Part shown: one piece after another, positions 3 to 4,987 of the stretch
How positions within the stretch are numbered: position 1 is the stretch's first letter
How the letters are laid out: every line of letters begins with the position of its first letter
Source: an uncultured Candidatus Bathyarchaeia archaeon
GTDB lineage: Archaea > Thermoproteota > Bathyarchaeia > Bathyarchaeales > Bathycorpusculaceae
NCBI GenBank assembly: GCA_964450845.1
Contig: CAYVGZ010000051.1
Span: forward strand, 1-10,873
Direction: 5' to 3'
Length of the DNA stretch: 10,873 bases
Translations under genes and position numbers: made by a program
The notes under the pieces: model-generated
Told to the model about the DNA's origin: nothing
The model's database searches: none
What the model saw: the letters and a program-made list of their open reading frames with translations, nothing else

Positions 3-1124
3 TGCATCATAGGCATTGCCCTCGCAACAACTTTTGTTATAGCAGTAGGTGCCACCACAATGCGATACACAAGCGTAATCAAAGAAATGAACGTGCTCTT
101 CAGCGGACAAGTCATGGTTGTCAGCAAAGACACTATAGTAATCCAAGCGATTCCAATAACCCGCGGCGCCTTCCCACAAAGCTTAGCTGAGGAAATAAAA
201 GGAAATATTAAGGAAGCAGAAAAGGCTGTTCCAGTATTATTCATAACTTCTATAAATTTTGAAGGAATAATTCAGCCTGTTCCGCCGAATTTCACCATCG
301 GAATACCCGTTGAAGATTGGGGGTTAATACTTGGATTAACCCCATTAAAAGGGAATGTGGGGCATTATCCAACAAACGAATCAAGCAATGAAGTCCTTGT
401 GGGAGCATCGCTGGCAGACCAATATAATTGGACTGTAAATAAAGAAATAACAGTGAACGGGCATAAGCTAAATGTTACTGGCATATTAGACACGAAATTG
501 GCCATATTCAATCGCAGCATAATCATGCCGCTTAAACTAGCACAGAGAATCTACACCTATCCAGAAAGTGCCAACATAATCACGGTAAAACCCATTGAAG
601 GATATTCGCAAAAAGATTTAGCAGATACCATAGAGCAACAGGTATCGTATGTTCAAGCTTTAACGGAAACTGAAAGAAACGATATGATTCAGCCTATTCT
701 AGTTCAAGTTGAGACATGGAACATTGGCATACAAACAGTGATTTTCCTCATGAGCCTAATACTTGTGATGACCGTAACCATTATGAGCGTTTCAGAAAGG
801 CGTAGGGACTTCGCAACCCTAGACGCCATGGGTGCACCATTAAGCTACGTATTCCGCGTTGTCATATTCGAAACGTCATTAATTGGAGTCTTAGGCGGCG
901 TCTTAGGCATAGTCTTCGGCTCTTTAGCGGCTTTCATTTTGGCAAGCCTTTACACAAACATTCCACTTGCCATGTTTTTCCCAACCTTCTACGAAATAAT
1001 TCCACCCTTCTACATGCTTGAAACATTCTTAGCAGTTGTTTTTGTTTGCTGTTTAGGCGGAATAATTCCAGCCATAAACGCGACTAGAATGCGCATAGCT
1101 GAAGTTTTGAGGGCTGAATATTAA
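3..1124 (+). CDS. ABC transporter permease, MacB/FtsX family (5'-truncated by the window edge)
   Basis: The frame is open from nt 3 (CIIGIALATTFVIAVGATT, a hydrophobic first TM segment) before the Met at 60, so the real start is upstream of the window. There is a large extracytoplasmic region, then the FtsX-like C-terminal TM block with SVSERRRDFATLDAMGA. The stop overlaps the next start (TAATG at 1122-1126). Confidence 0.88.
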   Translation, partial: CIIGIALATTFVIAVGATTMRYTSVIKEMNVLFSGQVMVVSKDTIVIQAIPITRGAFPQSLAEEIKGNIKEAEKAVPVLFITSINFEGIIQPVPPNFTIGIPVEDWGLILGLTPLKGNVGHYPTNESSNEVLVGASLADQYNWTVNKEITVNGHKLNVTGILDTKLAIFNRSIIMPLKLAQRIYTYPESANIITVKPIEGYSQKDLADTIEQQVSYVQALTETERNDMIQPILVQVETWNIGIQTVIFLMSLILVMTVTIMSVSERRRDFATLDAMGAPLSYVFRVVIFETSLIGVLGGVLGIVFGSLAAFILASLYTNIPLAMFFPTFYEIIPPFYMLETFLAVVFVCCLGGIIPAINATRMRIAEVLRAEY

Positions 1125-1798
1125 TGCATATTAAGACGGTAGATTTGACAAAAACATACACCATAGGATCATCGACGATAGCTGCTGTTGACAAAGTCAA
1201 TTTTGAAGTTAACGAAGCAAGATTCATAGCCATAGTTGGACCTTCAGGCTCAGGAAAATCGACGCTGCTGAACCTCATTGGGCTAAATGATTATCCGACC
1301 TCGGGCAAAATTTTTGCTGATGATGCAGATACTTCACTTCTGTCAAGCAGTCAACGTAGAAAAATCCGGCTTTTCCGCATGGGGTTTGTCTTCCAAACTT
1401 TCAATTTGTTGCCGACGCTTACGGCTTTGGAAAATGTAGAATTGCCCATGTCCTTAGCTAATAAGCCTCAAAAAGAGCAAAGAGAAAAAGCATTAAGGCT
1501 TCTTGAAACTGTTGGTTTAGGCAAAAGAGTTTTCCACAGACCTAAAGAGTTGAGCATGGGTGAAATGCAGCGCGTAGCCATAGCAAGGGCGCTTGCCAAC
1601 GATCCTGAAATAATAATTGCTGATGAACCCACTGGCGAGCTTGATTCAAAAACTGCAAAAGAAATAATCGCGTTGCTTTTTGATATACACAGAAAAGAAA
1701 AGACAGCGGTTATTGTGGCGACACATGATGAAAAAATAGTTGAAGTGGCAGATACTATTTACACGATTCAAGATGGCAGACTAAGGCTTGAAGGTTAA
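1124..1798 (+). CDS. ABC transporter ATP-binding protein, LolD/MacB-ATPase family
   Basis: Walker A GPSGSGKST, Q-loop GFVFQTFNL, signature-like LSMGEMQRVAIARAL, Walker B/D-loop IIIADEPTG, H-loop ATHD. Translationally coupled to the permease. Confidence 0.93.
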   Translation: MHIKTVDLTKTYTIGSSTIAAVDKVNFEVNEARFIAIVGPSGSGKSTLLNLIGLNDYPTSGKIFADDADTSLLSSSQRRKIRLFRMGFVFQTFNLLPTLTALENVELPMSLANKPQKEQREKALRLLETVGLGKRVFHRPKELSMGEMQRVAIARALANDPEIIIADEPTGELDSKTAKEIIALLFDIHRKEKTAVIVATHDEKIVEVADTIYTIQDGRLRLEG

Positions 1799-1808
1799 CG
1801 CTAATCTC

Positions 1809-2036
1809 CTATAGCAACGAAAAGTCCGTATATGTAATTCTCCCTTTGCCGTCTACAACAACCTCGAATTTTTCGGCCCATGGATGTCCTTCCAAGTCTA
1901 TGGGACATGTGCCCCTGATGATCCAAACCCCATTCTTTTGCTCAACTGTGGAAATGTCAATTTTCTCGGTGTTCTTCCTTTTCTTAAGATAATCAACAGC
2001 AATTTTCTGAACGGCATCCGTCGAAATATTCTGCAT
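1809..2036 (-). CDS. Small conserved-looking hypothetical protein (~75 aa), possibly PepSY-like alpha/beta fold
   Basis: The ORF track starts at TTG 2054, but ATG at 2036 has a GGAGG Shine-Dalgarno (2045-2049, minus strand) 8 nt upstream. The gene converges on the ABC ATPase with a 10-nt gap. The fold call comes only from the helix + beta-hairpin pattern (AVQKIAVDYL ... VWIIRG ... FEVVVDGKG). Confidence 0.7.
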   Translation of the reverse strand: MQNISTDAVQKIAVDYLKKRKNTEKIDISTVEQKNGVWIIRGTCPIDLEGHPWAEKFEVVVDGKGRITYTDFSLL

Positions 2037-2218
2037 TGTATGTTCCTCCAACAATTGCCTTACTATCTAGATAAAGACGGCATTAAGGGTTATGAACGGA
2101 AAATCGTTAGCGAAATTAAACATATGCCGAATTGTGTACGCGTGCTTTTTTGCGATAGGTTCAAATCGGCAGACATATCAGTTTTTACCTTGAAATAGCG
2201 TGTTAGAAAAGGAAGATC

Positions 2219-2377
2219 ATGAGTGAGAAAAAACGCATAATATTCCACGTGGACATGGACCATTTCTTCACTGCTGTTGAGGAAAGGGAACATCCCGAAT
2301 ATAAGGGCAAACCAGTAATTGTCGGGGCAGACCCGAAAGAAGGAAAGGGCAGAGGAGTCGTAAGCACATACATGTGA
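2219..2377 (+). pseudogene. dinB: Truncated dinB 5' fragment (52 aa: [52 protein letters not shown])
   Basis: Hand-translated and absent from the ORF track. Carries the Y-family HVDMDxFF motif. Homology to the downstream dinB ends after codon 50 (ACA, nt 2368), and TGA follows at 2375-2377. A purine-rich AAGGAAG lies just upstream of the ATG. Confidence 0.93.
2237..2368 (+). repeat. Diverged 132-bp direct repeat, copy 1 (copy 2 at 3373-3504)
   Basis: Ungapped hand alignment of 44 codons: 97/132 nt identical, 35/44 aa identical, and 19 of the 35 conserved residues use a different synonymous codon. Confidence 0.92.
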
Positions 2378-2378
2378 T

Positions 2379-2386
2379 TTTAAATA
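2379..2386 (+). promoter_or_regulatory. Archaeal TATA box (TTTAAATA) for a probably leaderless homing endonuclease transcript
   Basis: Matches the archaeal TATA consensus and ends 24 nt before ATG 2411. No Shine-Dalgarno before that ATG. Confidence 0.55.
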
Positions 2387-2410
2387 ACTAGGAAATTAAT
2401 AATAAGACTT

Positions 2411-3388
2411 ATGAAATGGACGAATAATGAAATAGAAATGCTAAAAGAACATTACTCCAAAACTGCCAAGCGTGATTTGGTTGAAATATTTAGAAGAATA
2501 GGTAGAAACAGAACATGGTTATCTATTTTTAAGAAAGCCAATAAATTAGGTTTAAAGAAAATTACACATAAAGAAGCGATTGATAAAATTCTCAGAGAAA
2601 AGTATAGTAATACTGCTCTTGAAGTTTTAATAAAAGAGGTTCAAAAGTATCTACCATATATAACAAAAAAAGCTCTTATAAGGAGAGCCAATCGTTTGGG
2701 GCTTAACAGAAGAAAATACGCTGCAAAAGTGCAACAAAAGAAAATAAAAATTCCTCAACCATCAAAGGAATTAGCTTGGTTTCTTGGCGTATTAGCAGGT
2801 GATGGATACGTTAGTTCTCTTAGAGATAAGTCCAAGACTTACAAGGCATCGCTAACGGTTGTATCTGAAGAGTTTGTGAATCAATTTTCGAAAATTGGAA
2901 AAGTACTATTTGGAATACAACCCCGCCTAAGAAAGTATAATAAATATAAACTAAAGGGAATTTGGAGAAAATATTACGAATGTACTTTTATCAGTAAGGC
3001 AATGGTTAATTTTCTGGGAGACTGGAGAGAAAATGCTTGGTTCGAAACTCTTACCAATAGATTCAATTGGATCTGGGATGATAAAAGTAACATTTCCGCC
3101 TTCTTAGGCGGATTTTTCGATTCGGATGGATCAATAATTTACAACAAAGAAAAGTACGTGAGAAGGGTTAGTTTTGCAATTTTAAACAAAAATGCTCAGA
3201 CCACCATTAAAAAGATGTTAGAAGAGTTAGGAATAAAATGCCATGTCTACTGGAAAGGTATTCAGATTGATGGTAAAGAAAACGTGAAAAAATTTGCTAT
3301 GCACATTGAAAGCCGCATCTCAGGAAAGAAGAGGTTACTAAACTTAGTAAGGCTGGAATCATGGAAAACAAAATCATCATGCATGTAG
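2411..3388 (+). CDS. Free-standing two-motif LAGLIDADG homing endonuclease with two N-terminal HTH/Myb-like repeats
   Basis: LAGLIDADG helix 1 is LAWFLGVLAGDG (aa 121-132) and helix 2 is SAFLGGFFDSDG (aa 229-240), with both catalytic acidic positions intact. There is no intein N-terminal Cys/Ser block and no terminal His-Asn. Confidence 0.9.
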   Translation: MKWTNNEIEMLKEHYSKTAKRDLVEIFRRIGRNRTWLSIFKKANKLGLKKITHKEAIDKILREKYSNTALEVLIKEVQKYLPYITKKALIRRANRLGLNRRKYAAKVQQKKIKIPQPSKELAWFLGVLAGDGYVSSLRDKSKTYKASLTVVSEEFVNQFSKIGKVLFGIQPRLRKYNKYKLKGIWRKYYECTFISKAMVNFLGDWRENAWFETLTNRFNWIWDDKSNISAFLGGFFDSDGSIIYNKEKYVRRVSFAILNKNAQTTIKKMLEELGIKCHVYWKGIQIDGKENVKKFAMHIESRISGKKRLLNLVRLESWKTKSSCM

Positions 3389-4428
3389 ATATGGACGCCT
3401 TCTTTGCCGCGGTGGAGGAAAGGGAACATCCTGAGTTTAAGGGAATGCCGATAGTTGTTGGGGCTGATCCTAAAGAAGGAAGAGGCAGGGGAGTAGTTAG
3501 CAGCGCTTCTTATGAGGCTAGAAGGCTCGGTGTTAGGTCTGGCATGCCCATCTCAAAGGCTTGGAAACTCTGTTCAGAAGCCATTTACTTGCCAGTTAAC
3601 TACGAACTTTATGAAAAAGTTTCCAACGAAATCATGGAAATACTGCGAAAACATGCAGACAAATTTGAGCAATGGGGCATAGATGAGGCTTTCTTAGACG
3701 TAACTTCAAAAGTGAAGAATTATTTGGAAGCCGAAGCCCTAGGACGACAGGTAAAAAGAGAAATTTACGAGAAGGAAAAGCTCACATGTTCTATAGGCAT
3801 AGGTCCAAACAAGCTTATCGCCAAAATAGCCAGTGACTTCCAAAAACCAGACGGTTTAACAACGGTTAAAGAAGGCGAAACGGAAAAGTTTCTTGCTCCG
3901 CTGCCAGTGCGTAGGCTTCTCTGGGTTGGACGGAAGACTGAACAGAAATTGAAGGTTATGGGAATTGCGACCATAGGCGATTTGGCTCGCCACGACCCTG
4001 CGGTGCTGGCAGAAACCTTCGGTGTTATGGGCACGCAGATTTATTTGATGGCGCATGGAATCGACAGAAGCGAGGTTGAAGAAAGAGGTGAAATCAAGTC
4101 CATCAGCCGCGAAACAACATTTGAAGAAGACACATCAAATATTGATTTAATCCTTAATACCTTGGATAGGCTTTCAGAAGAAGCGCATAAGGATGTTTCG
4201 AGGCAAAACCTTTACTTCAAAACAGTTACCGTTAAAGTGCGCTACGAAAATTTTGAAACGCACACTCACAGCAAAACATTACCATTAATCACAAATCGTT
4301 TGCAAGACATAAAGAAAGCAGACAGGGAACTGTTGCAAGTCTACCTTAGACCAGACAGAAAAATAAGGCTTATAGGCGTCAGACTTTCAAACTTTGTATC
4401 AGCAGAAAAACAAAAAACATTAACTTAA
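3361..4428 (+). CDS. dinB: DNA polymerase IV (Y-family, DinB/Dpo4-like)
   Basis: Motifs HVDMDAFF, SYEAR, GIDEAFLD, the HhH thumb (LLWVGRKT) and the little-finger domain (KSISRETTFEED ... IRLIGVRL). C-terminal QKTL may be a clamp-binding motif. The first 28 nt overlap the endonuclease ORF. Confidence 0.96.
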   Translation: MENKIIMHVDMDAFFAAVEEREHPEFKGMPIVVGADPKEGRGRGVVSSASYEARRLGVRSGMPISKAWKLCSEAIYLPVNYELYEKVSNEIMEILRKHADKFEQWGIDEAFLDVTSKVKNYLEAEALGRQVKREIYEKEKLTCSIGIGPNKLIAKIASDFQKPDGLTTVKEGETEKFLAPLPVRRLLWVGRKTEQKLKVMGIATIGDLARHDPAVLAETFGVMGTQIYLMAHGIDRSEVEERGEIKSISRETTFEEDTSNIDLILNTLDRLSEEAHKDVSRQNLYFKTVTVKVRYENFETHTHSKTLPLITNRLQDIKKADRELLQVYLRPDRKIRLIGVRLSNFVSAEKQKTLT

Positions 4429-4438
4429 GAGGTTTGTG

Positions 4439-4738
4439 TCATTTCGTTTTTATGTTTGGGTACTTTTCTCTTATTTTTGCATCTGCGATTTTGGCAATCA
4501 TCGCATTGGAGATTAACACGCACTTGACTCCTGTGAGTTCTGCAAGCTCTGCTGGTTTCTGATCTTGCGTAACAAGCAACAAGTTGTTATTCTTAGCGTA
4601 CTCTACGATGTCCTTGTCTTTTGCTCCTTTCAATCCCGCATCTTGAACGGTTAACACTTCCCATCCTAAAGTTTCAAAATACTCTTTTAAACCCGCATAC
4701 ATCTCATCAAGCAAAATCTTCAACAGTGTAAACCCCAT
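4439..4738 (-). CDS. PIN-like domain protein (DUF5615 / Mut7-C N-terminal type), putative RNase
   Basis: The pattern ILLDEM...LGWEV..V.DAGL.GA.D..I...A....LLLVTQD is typical of DUF5615/Mut7-C PIN folds. It has no C-terminal zinc ribbon. Confidence 0.78.
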   Translation of the reverse strand: MGFTLLKILLDEMYAGLKEYFETLGWEVLTVQDAGLKGAKDKDIVEYAKNNNLLLVTQDQKPAELAELTGVKCVLISNAMIAKIADAKIREKYPNIKTK

Positions 4739-4987
4739 TTAAATCTAAAATCATCGACATGCACCTATTTAGGCTATTCCACCAAAAACTCCAATACAAA
4801 ACTGACATGCTCGGAAATATTTAAGACTATATGCAGAAACCTAGAAGTGGAATAGCTAGCGAAAAAGCTCCGGCACAAAACTGCAGCCTTGTTATTCCAG
4901 TTTTTGCACTAGCCATGTATGAGTGCTTTAAATAATGCGATTTTCATTAATTTAAATGACAGCTTATCATAGGACCAACAACAATTG

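Follow-up and report, generated by a model that had tools for sequence, protein, structure and literature searches.

Anatomy of the dinB locus

The plus strand of the analysed DNA carries, in this order, a stranded start of dinB, two stop codons, a TATA-like box, an open reading frame (ORF) for a LAGLIDADG protein and a full-length dinB. This arrangement had been proposed in a first-pass annotation, and ORF prediction, Pfam searches and an alignment of the repeated segments recovered every element where it had been placed. The window, by which we mean the whole stretch of 10,873 nucleotides, is a 10.9 kb contig from a metagenome-assembled genome (MAG) of 120 contigs.

The displaced native 5′ end of dinB, here termed F (2219–2377), was recognised from its match to Pfam IMS and its alignment to a congener. 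Its ORF of 52 amino acids consists of 50 native codons (MSEKK...GRGVVST) followed by YM and a stop, and it matches positions 1–36 of IMS (E-value of 4.6 × 10−8). F is 74% identical to residues 2–48 of the full DinB (BLASTP E-value of 3 × 10−25), and at the DNA level the two starts form a repeat of 130 nt (2237–2366 and 3373–3502, 75% identity, spacing 1136). The break lies directly after ...GRGVVST (residue 50 of F, residue 48 of the full gene) and right before a conserved (C/A/S)(N/S)YEAR motif, as the first-pass annotation had also read it. Two in-frame stops, TGA at 2375–2377 and TAA at 2381–2383, close F. They lie in an AT-rich spacer (2369–2410), the left end of the cassette described below, which also holds the TATA-like sequence TTTAAATA at 2379–2386. 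This box ends 25 nt and begins 32 nt before the ATG of the following ORF (2411), and is likely the promoter of a near-leaderless mRNA.

That ORF (2411–3388, 325 amino acids) is a free-standing homing endonuclease gene (HEG) of the monomeric LAGLIDADG type, present as a single copy in the genome. The GC content of spacer and HEG is 32.8%, compared with 41% in the host. The end of the HEG overlaps by 28 nt with the start of the full-length dinB (3361–4428, 355 amino acids). This gene is a hybrid: codons 1 to about 53 (3361–3519), here termed R, were brought in by the cassette, as judged from the identity profile, the tree and the AU test given below, and codons about 54–355 are resident. Comparison of empty and R alleles places an altered version of the presumed target site within R, at 3496–3522. 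All four Y-family domains (IMS, IMS_HHH, IMS_HHH_1 and IMS_C) were found in the hybrid DinB (PF00817, E-value of 1.9 × 10−52; PF11798; PF21999; PF11799, E-value of 1.4 × 10−24). With palm/fingers, thumb (HhH) and little-finger domains and the catalytic DMD motif, kept in R as HVDMD, the hybrid is predicted to be a functional gene for a Y-family DNA polymerase IV (DinB/Dpo4).

The HEG product matches LAGLIDADG_3 (E-value of 2.1 × 10−15) and Hom_end, with scores above the Pfam cut-offs (PF14528, 57.2 bits against 22.5; PF05204, 24.5 against 21.1). Two LAGLIDADG motifs, at residues 121–134 (2771–2812) and 228–242 (3092–3136), each carry an acidic residue before the final Gly (D131-G132 and D239-G240). 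Both motifs and their acidic residues are kept in 19 homologues, the most distant at 33% identity, with no variation at position 131 and either D or E at position 239. An AF2 model (pLDDT 89.3) shows the pseudo-dimeric αββαββα fold, for which the best Foldseek matches were intein HE domains, I-SceI, I-DmoI and bI3 maturase (probability 1.00). Motifs, family profile and fold together are those of a monomeric double-motif LAGLIDADG enzyme. The gene is under purifying selection (dN/dS 0.22–0.45). Residues 1–115 form an additional helical domain of two repeats that probably binds DNA. This domain gave only sub-threshold Pfam matches (GcrA, E-value of 0.007), and in an Atlas feature search it was linked only weakly (scores 0.77–0.83) to phage LAGLIDADG proteins in which HTH domains of the Myb or sigma-70 region 4 type occur. 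In one distant relative (P0023), the repeats are found at the C-terminus instead. The distant relative L064 (34% identity), whose repeats are C-terminal, was set aside: dinB is not adjacent, and the ORFs checked include no duplicated gene end.

Origin and spread of the two dinB starts

F is native to its host. Positions 731–2367 of the window align without a break to the upstream flank and dinB start of the congener G002 (90.8% identity), and homology to uninterrupted relatives stops at 2367/2368. Against the uninterrupted dinB of this congener, F has 90% nucleotide and 96% amino acid identity, with 11 synonymous and 2 non-synonymous changes (omega 0.04), and the tree places both in the same starred set. 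The first-pass annotation had predicted that 2219–2368 would side with the host. Since F is under such strong constraint and is as close to the congener as the rest of the gene, it must have been working coding sequence until recently. We also found DinBs of 357 amino acids that share the first 50 residues of F exactly and continue with CNYEAR; their bodies are 75–86% identical to that of the window. A search of longer proteins with the F peptide found no empty allele from the same species, the nearest uninterrupted alleles being 75–86% identical in the 3′ part (protein) or about 91% in the flanks (DNA).

R, conversely, is foreign. Its identity to G002 is about 69% at the nucleotide and 73% at the amino acid level, whereas the rest of dinB has 87% nucleotide identity, with about 90% from codon ~58 on. 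Sliding identity rises from ~0.68–0.72 to ~0.9 at nt ~160, a sharp breakpoint within codons ~53–58. R is about 72% identical to F and carries the signature DMDAFF / MPIVVG / VVSSASY. The proposal of a carried, recoded dinB start was thus right as to the carried 5′ piece but not as to purely synonymous recoding, since R is a homologue that has diverged from F in protein sequence too (dN 0.15). Its right edge is near codon 53. Across distant cassettes, the omega of R is 0.05–0.17, evidence of purifying selection and hence probably of translation.

The two kinds of start differ consistently where the fragments end. All F fragments terminate within codons 48–51. At codons 48–50, R reads AGC GCT TCT (S-A-S) and empty alleles read ACA TGC AAT (T-C-N), and seven of these nine bases are consistently different between 27 empty alleles and 11 R ends. 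In the distant relative L039, the S-T-C-N-Y protein sequence is kept and the difference is only synonymous.

The order F-HEG-R-dinB, with the same junction sequence, recurs in more than 20 independent metagenome or MAG contigs (ENA, JGI, NCBI and Logan), some of them 40–75 kb long. Each homologue of the HEG (44–97% amino acid identity) is immediately followed by a full dinB, and these loci represent at least seven different neighbourhoods; F-HEG-R is present at all loci where HEG identity is at least 65%. Between hosts that share only 74–91% identity in their flanks and dinB 3′ parts, the cassette (spacer, HEG and R) is 95–99% identical. Within it, R is 98–99% identical to the R of cassettes from other hosts, and the spacer, which is not found in empty alleles, is 90–100% identical among close cassettes in different hosts. 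Compared piece by piece with the window, identity in L046 is 75% upstream, 83% in F, 90% in the spacer, 95% in the HEG, 98% in R and 82/77% in the dinB 3′ part; in L045, the corresponding values are 74%, 81%, 95%, 96%, 99% and 76%. Synonymous divergence is 0.03–0.14 in the HEG and 0.03–0.07 in R, compared with 0.26–1.7 in host dinB, that is, 5–15 times lower in the cassette.

Separate trees of the 5′ and 3′ parts of dinB, a test named beforehand by the first-pass annotation, gave conflicting histories. In the 5′ tree, R falls in a starred clade (98/97) of replacement ends only, and forcing it in with host 5′ ends was rejected (AU test, p = 1.2 × 10−4). Segment 3361–3510 was therefore found, as anticipated, with the replacement ends of other endonuclease-carrying loci and nothing else. 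In the 3′ tree, the same six loci are spread over at least three host clades, their monophyly was rejected (AU test, p = 1.2 × 10−4), and the HEG-bearing state requires at least four changes among them. The cassette is polymorphic for presence at a single site and incongruent with its hosts, and has moved horizontally between genera. The clade containing R joins fragments of a second host group only weakly (78/62), so no donor lineage can be named. R ends in this second group have certain residues in common with the F of the same locus, and some gene conversion or co-divergence between F and R thus blurs the simple picture.

Three stages of the allele were seen: empty, occupied and decayed. 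The HEG was not found in 60 genomes of relatives, 39 of them with dinB. Among the family-type dinB copies listed in relatives' genomes, 31 of 32 are uninterrupted; G001 has a 1-base frameshift. R-type starts (at least 89% identity over 56 amino acids) occur in at least 20 distinct DinB clusters, with bodies 65–86% identical to that of the window. HEG and F have decayed after insertion at several loci. In L065–L068, F contains stops and HEG residues 64–292 are deleted; in these loci and in L046, F is frameshifted or stop-bearing, and the dinB that starts with R is intact. More distant members (L038, L039–41 and L044, 44–54% identity) have HEG and dinB with no detectable fragment, and may represent an older free-standing form or have lost F.

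A proposed homing cycle and its alternatives

We consider it very probable that positions 2369 to ~3519 form a mobile homing cassette specific for Bathyarchaeia dinB, presumably moving by a cycle of cleavage and repair. In this cassette, the start of R overlaps or adjoins the end of the HEG. The endonuclease is predicted to be site-specific for uninterrupted dinB, which it would cut within codons ~46–53 (...GTC GTA AGC ACA TGC AAT TAT GAA...). The right broken end would then pair with donor dinB downstream of R and the left one with the stranded F of the donor, and repair synthesis would copy spacer, HEG and R into the break. This would strand the first 48 codons of the recipient upstream as a dead fragment, and full-length polymerase would be encoded by the fusion of R with the resident 3′ part, which probably shares its transcript with the HEG. 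R should resist cleavage because S-A-S has replaced T-C-N at codons 48–50 and there are many further third-position differences. The identity of only ~72% between R and F should in turn hinder loss of the cassette through its repeats.

A broader reading, plausible but somewhat short of an even chance, is that F and the resident 3′ part serve as the arms of a self-contained homing unit, in which the carried 5′ end at once rescues the gene, removes the cleavage site and blocks repeat-mediated excision. Such a unit possibly arose by one-sided repair from free-standing upstream HEGs like those of L038, L039 and L044, and might exemplify a general, undescribed route into archaeal chromosomal protein genes without introns or inteins. 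With both homology arms inside the target gene, conserved gene order would not be needed, and the borders of genera and families could be crossed.

In an alternative view, the HEG no longer drives any movement. A single old illegitimate event would have made F-HEG-R, and ordinary homologous recombination following uptake of DNA would since have carried the block from one Bathyarchaeia genome to another, with the HEG as a passenger or in another role such as WhiA-like regulation. One relative does carry the source label 'WhiA', degenerate copies exist, and the constraint on the HEG is only moderate. We nevertheless judge this improbable. The catalytic residues and both motifs persist in even the most divergent of the 19 homologues, the HEG is strictly bound to one site of one gene across unrelated neighbourhoods, its cassette has far lower synonymous divergence than the host gene, and the consistent recoding coincides with the end point of all fragments. 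Active homing would be expected to leave such marks.

Very unlikely, too, is an ancient vertical arrangement in which a tandem duplication of the dinB start and an upstream HEG arose once and were lost repeatedly, with no horizontal movement. The position of distant family members, likewise upstream of dinB, and the places in which second-group R ends resemble their own F would agree with such a history; the closeness of F to the congener at an omega of 0.04, the near-identity of cassettes between divergent hosts, the rejection of congruence by the AU tests and the repeated changes of the HEG-bearing state among six loci do not.

Still more doubtful is a splicing element, be it an intein, a group I or II intron or an archaeal bulge-helix-bulge (BHB) intron, in which long-range pairing (2348–3408) would excise the insert and so connect F with the 3′ part. 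The HEG start is in frame with F and the stops, and in the window the end of F and the spacer do pair with the start of R (−34.5 kcal/mol, against −18.9 ± 3.2 for shuffled sequences). Real as it is in the window, this pairing is not conserved: of eight other cassettes tested, seven gave no significant pairing and L036 a weaker one (0.02); L046, with a cassette 95% identical, lacks it. An intein was rejected on the stops at 2375 and 2381, the lack of any Intein_splicing or Hint match in Pfam and the duplication of host 5′ codons; we know of no intein that duplicates these. No Rfam intron family was matched, a scan of 1800–4600 giving nothing at E ≤ 1 except a chance lncRNA match. R moreover begins with a start codon of its own and is constrained by purifying selection, and R-dinB is intact at the loci with a frameshifted or stop-bearing F. 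The first-pass annotation was hence correct in reading the element as neither intein nor intron. An assembly chimera of two dinB alleles in the metagenome bin, a danger it had flagged and one that a short contig from a fragmented MAG might invite, is scarcely credible, as the three-part order and its junction recur across independent samples and assemblers.

Relation to known homing systems

Homing endonucleases are thought to persist in essential or conserved genes inside self-splicing introns or inteins. The sole accepted splicing-free alternative, to our knowledge, is an element that carries the 3′ end of its host gene (mORF), known from fungal mitochondria. The dinB locus and its more than 20 relatives are a mirror-image solution in archaeal chromosomes, in which the element carries the gene start. 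Environmental Bathyarchaeia display every stage of the homing cycle, and the cassette is a record of recent gene flow among genera of uncultured archaea. It also accounts for stray 'DNA polymerase IV' fragments of 50 codons and for DinB proteins with chimeric N-termini, which could lead annotation and gene trees astray. As a new LAGLIDADG family with a well-constrained candidate target of 20–25 bp and a natural, putatively resistant variant, these enzymes have a directly testable specificity and may be useful for meganuclease engineering. The literature searched, which covered few subscription journals, reported neither a homing endonuclease in the dinB of archaea nor an element that carries a 5′ end.

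The closest known systems are the mORF 'gene hybrids' of Allomyces macrogynus atp6, Glomus atp6, atp9, cox2 and nad3, Rhizopus atp9 and Mortierella cox2, along with partial atp6 and cob duplications in Endoconidiophora (PMC3630166, PMC6279837). As in the dinB cassette, an endonuclease gene (LAGLIDADG, or GIY-YIG in fungi) sits inside a protein gene with no intron or intein and travels with a duplicated, diverged copy of one end of that gene, by which the frame is restored. The native end is displaced and left unexpressed or decaying, and by phylogeny the carried piece is foreign and the displaced piece groups with the host. The orientation differs. In mORFs, the carried piece is C-terminal and precedes the endonuclease ORF, with which it is often in phase, and the native 3′ end has been displaced to the downstream side. 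The dinB cassette carries a 5′ end downstream of the HEG and leaves the native 5′ end, which retains its start codon and probably also the promoter, upstream behind stops. The host compartment is an organelle in the former and an archaeal chromosome in the latter. Carried 3′ ends are the only kind described in the fungal literature we found (PMC3630166, PMC6279837), in agreement with the first-pass annotation, and the word 'N-terminal' is absent from the text of PMC3630166.

Intronless homing by the free-standing T-even phage endonucleases SegF, SegG, SegB and MobE (PMC2988022, PMC2790892, PMC2330249) is similar in that no intron or intein encloses the HEG, which is believed to cleave the HEG-less allele in a neighbouring conserved gene and is co-inherited with resistant donor sequence. 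These GIY-YIG or HNH genes, however, lie between genes, have no duplicated gene fragment and need synteny on both sides, while both homology arms of the dinB cassette (F and the 3′ part) are inside the target gene.

As a protein, the HEG product shares its double-motif single-chain LAGLIDADG fold with the archaeal rRNA intron-encoded I-DmoI and I-Tsp061I and the intein-borne PI-PfuI and TliVMA (Foldseek E-values of 10−8 to 10−5), and it has a profile match to an I-DmoI/I-CreI chimera (E-value of 10−4). It differs from these four in its identity of only 15–21%, in its extra N-terminal domain of 115 residues and in having no intron or intein around it.

A further comparison is offered by the 'genes in pieces' of phage Aeh1, in which mobE splits nrdA, and by fractured genes that carry split inteins (PMC2677866). 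As in dinB, a free-standing endonuclease gene lies within a conserved DNA-metabolism gene in Aeh1. Such genes stay split, and their products reassemble or trans-splice; dinB is instead made whole at the DNA level by the duplicate that the cassette carries.

Organisation of the dinB locus

The window is one entire contig (C51; 10,873 bp) of a 1.64-Mb, 120-contig, 93%-complete archaeal MAG, with ordinary chromosomal neighbour genes: an ABC transporter, undecaprenyl-diphosphatase (BacA), an archaeal CCA-adding enzyme, LigT and a radical-SAM enzyme. The first-pass annotation had described a dinB start fragment, a stop, a TATA box, a LAGLIDADG ORF and a complete dinB with a duplicated start, and ORF, Pfam, BLAST and repeat analyses confirmed this arrangement as written. 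On the forward strand, a 52-aa ORF (2219-2377, hereafter F) covers the start of the Pfam IMS (Y-family polymerase) domain. It is followed by a 325-aa ORF (2411-3388, HEG) for a LAGLIDADG_3/Hom_end protein (Pfam) and a 355-aa ORF (3361-4428) for a complete DinB with palm/fingers, thumb and little-finger domains (Pfam), the start of which we call R. The F product is 74% identical to residues 2-48 of the full DinB (E-value 3e-25), and the underlying DNA repeat covers 130 nt at 75% identity with a spacing of 1136 nt. F ends in ...GRGVVST, then Y-M-stop, then a second in-frame stop. The HEG ATG follows a TATA-like box (TTTAAATA, 2379-2386, forward strand) at a distance of 25 nt from the end of the box and 32 nt from its start. 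The dinB start overlaps the HEG stop by 28 nt in the window and by 4 nt in locus L037, which suggests a single transcript with coupled translation.

F, the stop codons and the HEG ATG share one frame in most lineages checked (window 2219-2413, L036, L037, L049, L054, L057), though not in L048, L052 and L051. The spacers between F and HEG differ in length by multiples of three, and L037 has a single stop only. The shared frame may date from an earlier in-frame fusion such as those of fungal mobile endonuclease ORFs (mORFs), or reflect a translational-coupling constraint. Between dinB and the radical-SAM gene, window positions 4429-4973 are largely not alignable with G002, a congener, though both flanks are collinear. 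This stretch contains a DUF5615/PIN_10-like gene (4439-4738, reverse strand) and is a small variable spot, possibly toxin-antitoxin-like.

Native and incoming parts of dinB

We drew dinB loci from 60 related genomes, 39 of which contained the gene; no close HEG homologue was found among the 60. Uninterrupted dinB (the empty allele) accounted for 31 of the 32 family-type copies listed in these genomes, the remaining one, from the same-genus genome G001, having a 1-base frameshift. F is 90% identical to G002 in nucleotides and 96% in amino acids, whereas the same codons in the full gene, R, reach only 69% and 73%; the rest of the full dinB is 87% identical in nucleotides. Sliding identity to G002 is about 0.68-0.72 up to gene nt ~130 and about 0.9 from nt ~160 on. 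Window positions 731-2367, comprising the upstream flank and F, align unbroken to the G002 flank and dinB start (90.8%), and this collinearity ends exactly at the last codon of the fragment. Of the differences between F and G002, 11 are synonymous and 2 non-synonymous (omega, dN/dS, 0.04), which implies that F was a working coding sequence until recently, for almost the whole period after the two species diverged. Uninterrupted DinBs of 357 aa are known that match F in all of their first 50 residues and continue with CNYEAR. Taken together, the resident gene comprises F and codons ~54-355, and the incomer HEG and codons 1 to ~53.

In the uninterrupted dinB of G001 (L019:1380-1600), one base is deleted (GGGCA-AGGAG) about 15 nt upstream from the cassette insertion point, and the 5' end also has a T48A change. 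The resulting frameshift may reflect an error in the MAG consensus or a scar left when a break was repaired imprecisely.

Recurrence and mosaic spread of the cassette

A protein search identified 20 HEG homologues (31-97% identity), and context look-ups and collection scans retrieved about 30 HEG loci. HEG was immediately upstream of a full dinB in all of them except L064, a 34% relative, and the dinB-linked loci represent at least seven unrelated neighbourhoods. The order F-spacer-HEG-R-dinB is complete at all loci with HEG identity of at least 65%. F ends within codons 48-51 in every case, and every R has the signature DMDAFF, MPIVVG, VVSSASY. Segment identities to the window form a mosaic. 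For upstream flank, F, spacer, HEG, R and dinB 3' part, respectively, they are 75, 83, 90, 95, 98 and 82/77% in L046, 74, 81, 95, 96, 99 and 76% in L045, and 91, 88, 95, 96, 99 and 90/81% in L048. In five close cassettes, the near-identical tract stops at about dinB nt 160 (codon ~53), past which each locus tracks its own host lineage. Synonymous divergence is 0.03-0.14 for HEG and 0.03-0.07 for R, versus 0.26-1.7 for dinB codons 58-202 of the same loci.

It had been predicted beforehand that the upstream fragment would group with host empty alleles and the dinB start with other replacement ends, and both groupings were seen in the trees and AU tests. In the 5' tree (135-nt alignment, codons 4-48), the window R falls inside a starred clade (98/97) of six R ends, and the window F in a starred set with empty alleles, G002 included. 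Forcing R to join host 5' ends cost 89.5 log-likelihood units (AU p 1.2e-4). In the 3'-part trees, the same six loci are spread over at least three host clades (with G001/G002, L008/L016 and L029/L032); monophyly of their 3' parts was rejected (AU p 1.2e-4), and the starred branches require the HEG+ label to have changed at least four times.

More distant HEG relatives (44-54% identity; L038, L039-L041, L044/L047, L058, L061-L062) are also directly upstream of dinB, with an upstream spacer of only ~90-290 nt and no detectable 5' dinB fragment at these loci. This arrangement could be the free-standing ancestral state or the outcome of losing F. The dinB of L039 keeps the protein sequence S-T-C-N-Y with synonymous differences in almost all codons of the presumed site. 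Genes adjoining dinB, eRF1 and a pyridine-nucleotide disulfide oxidoreductase, contain LAGLIDADG inteins (L038:1-1782, L039:6081-8255); homing elements of several kinds reside in these archaeal genomes.

Endonuclease, likely target site and homing cycle

In 19 homologues, the two LAGLIDADG motifs are conserved together with the acidic residues D131 and D/E239, and HEG omega is 0.22-0.45. The AlphaFold model is confident (pLDDT 89.3), with intein endonuclease domains, I-SceI, I-DmoI, I-Tsp061I and bI3 maturase as best structural matches. Residues 1-115 form two helical repeats without family assignment, for which the weak leads are HTH modules like those attached to phage LAGLIDADG proteins. 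Spacer and HEG have a GC content of 32.8%, versus ~41% in the host. In P0023 (L064:2995-3861), a 31-34% identical relative whose gene does not adjoin dinB, both repeats are C-terminal, not N-terminal; they appear to behave as a movable putative DNA-binding module.

The likely target lies where, across 27 empty alleles, codons 44-54 read GGA GTC GTA AGC ACA TGC AAT TAT GAA GCT AGA; their first and second positions hardly vary. R codons 47-50 are AGC/T AGC/T GCT TCT/C in all close and middle-distance cassettes, so that 7 of the 9 bases of codons 48-50 are changed and T-C-N becomes S-A-S, which would make R immune to the enzyme. The polymerase should tolerate this change, since alanine and serine occupy these positions in other Y-family members, such as Pol eta with S-Y-E-A-R.

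The left junction sequence is common to cassettes in different hosts, while host-specific bases persist in F to within a few nt of it, which fits a cut here with the left end invading the donor's F. The enzyme would cut uninterrupted dinB around codons 48-51, and the right end would pair with donor dinB past R. Repair synthesis would then run through R, HEG and spacer, and the left end would anneal to the donor F (80-90% identical) rather than to R (~70% identical). Such repair would place the cassette between the recipient's own F and its 3' part, exactly the observed mosaic. F and R are direct repeats flanking HEG; as their identity is low (longest exact block 17 nt), HEG loss by repeat recombination should be slowed.

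Among alternatives to homing, a bulge-helix-bulge intron formed by long-range pairing draws on the predicted RNA pairing of window positions 2347-2404 with 3333-3409 (-34.5 versus -18.9 +/- 3.2 kcal/mol when shuffled). However, only the window shows strong pairing: among eight further cassettes tested, L036 has a weaker version and the remaining seven fall short of significance. The complementarity of the F end and spacer with the HEG end and R start is probably lineage-specific chance, and could affect translation of the dinB start here. For a ribozyme intron, no Rfam match was found at the locus. Passive spread of an inactive endonuclease fits poorly with HEG conservation and the site pattern. 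A vertically inherited ancient duplication is contradicted by the asymmetry between cassette and host divergence and by the AU tests. Recurrence across independent assemblies excludes an assembly chimera, and in-frame stops, duplicated codons and the lack of Hint domains exclude an intein.

At least 20 distinct DinB clusters have an R-type start (at least 89% identity over 56 residues) on bodies 65-86% identical to that of the window. Four long contigs (L065-L068, about 2560-3030) represent a decayed stage: F has stops and frameshifts, HEG residues 64-292 are gone via a ~685-nt deletion and R-dinB is intact. F is also frameshifted in L046 and truncated in L056. Together with an R omega of 0.05-0.17 between distant cassettes, this decay beside an intact R-dinB identifies R-dinB as the gene under selection, while F is dispensable and HEG decays once fixed. 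The empty, occupied and decayed alleles match the three stages classically recognised for homing elements. The whole homing cycle is documented, and its candidate target is directly testable. The DUF5615/PIN-like gene downstream in L065-L068 is the same as that of the window. A DinB at L069:1420-2484 has the S-S-A-S-Y-E-A-R signature and a DAFFP-type start, and the ~600 nt upstream hold neither endonuclease gene nor fragment. It represents either a resistant allele cleared of all other cassette remains or a lineage resembling the source of R.

The dinB cassette is well supported as a real mobile element, and HEG is a member of a new dinB-specific LAGLIDADG family. The literature searched, which covered few subscription journals, contained no homing endonuclease in archaeal dinB, no LAGLIDADG genes in Bathyarchaeota and no 5'-end-carrying version. 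Phage intronless homing (Seg and Mob enzymes) is similar in its free-standing gene and resistant donor flank, but leaves no duplicated fragment and is synteny-dependent. The closest described systems are fungal mitochondrial mORFs, which form gene hybrids in Allomyces atp6, in Glomus atp6, atp9, cox2 and nad3, in Rhizopus atp9 and in Mortierella cox2, with partial C-terminal duplications of atp6 and cob in Endoconidiophora (PMC3630166, PMC6279837). In all of these, the piece carried is C-terminal and precedes the endonuclease ORF (PMC3630166, PMC6279837), whereas the dinB cassette is the mirror image, a 5'-end-carrying gene hybrid of the mitochondrial type in archaeal chromosomes.
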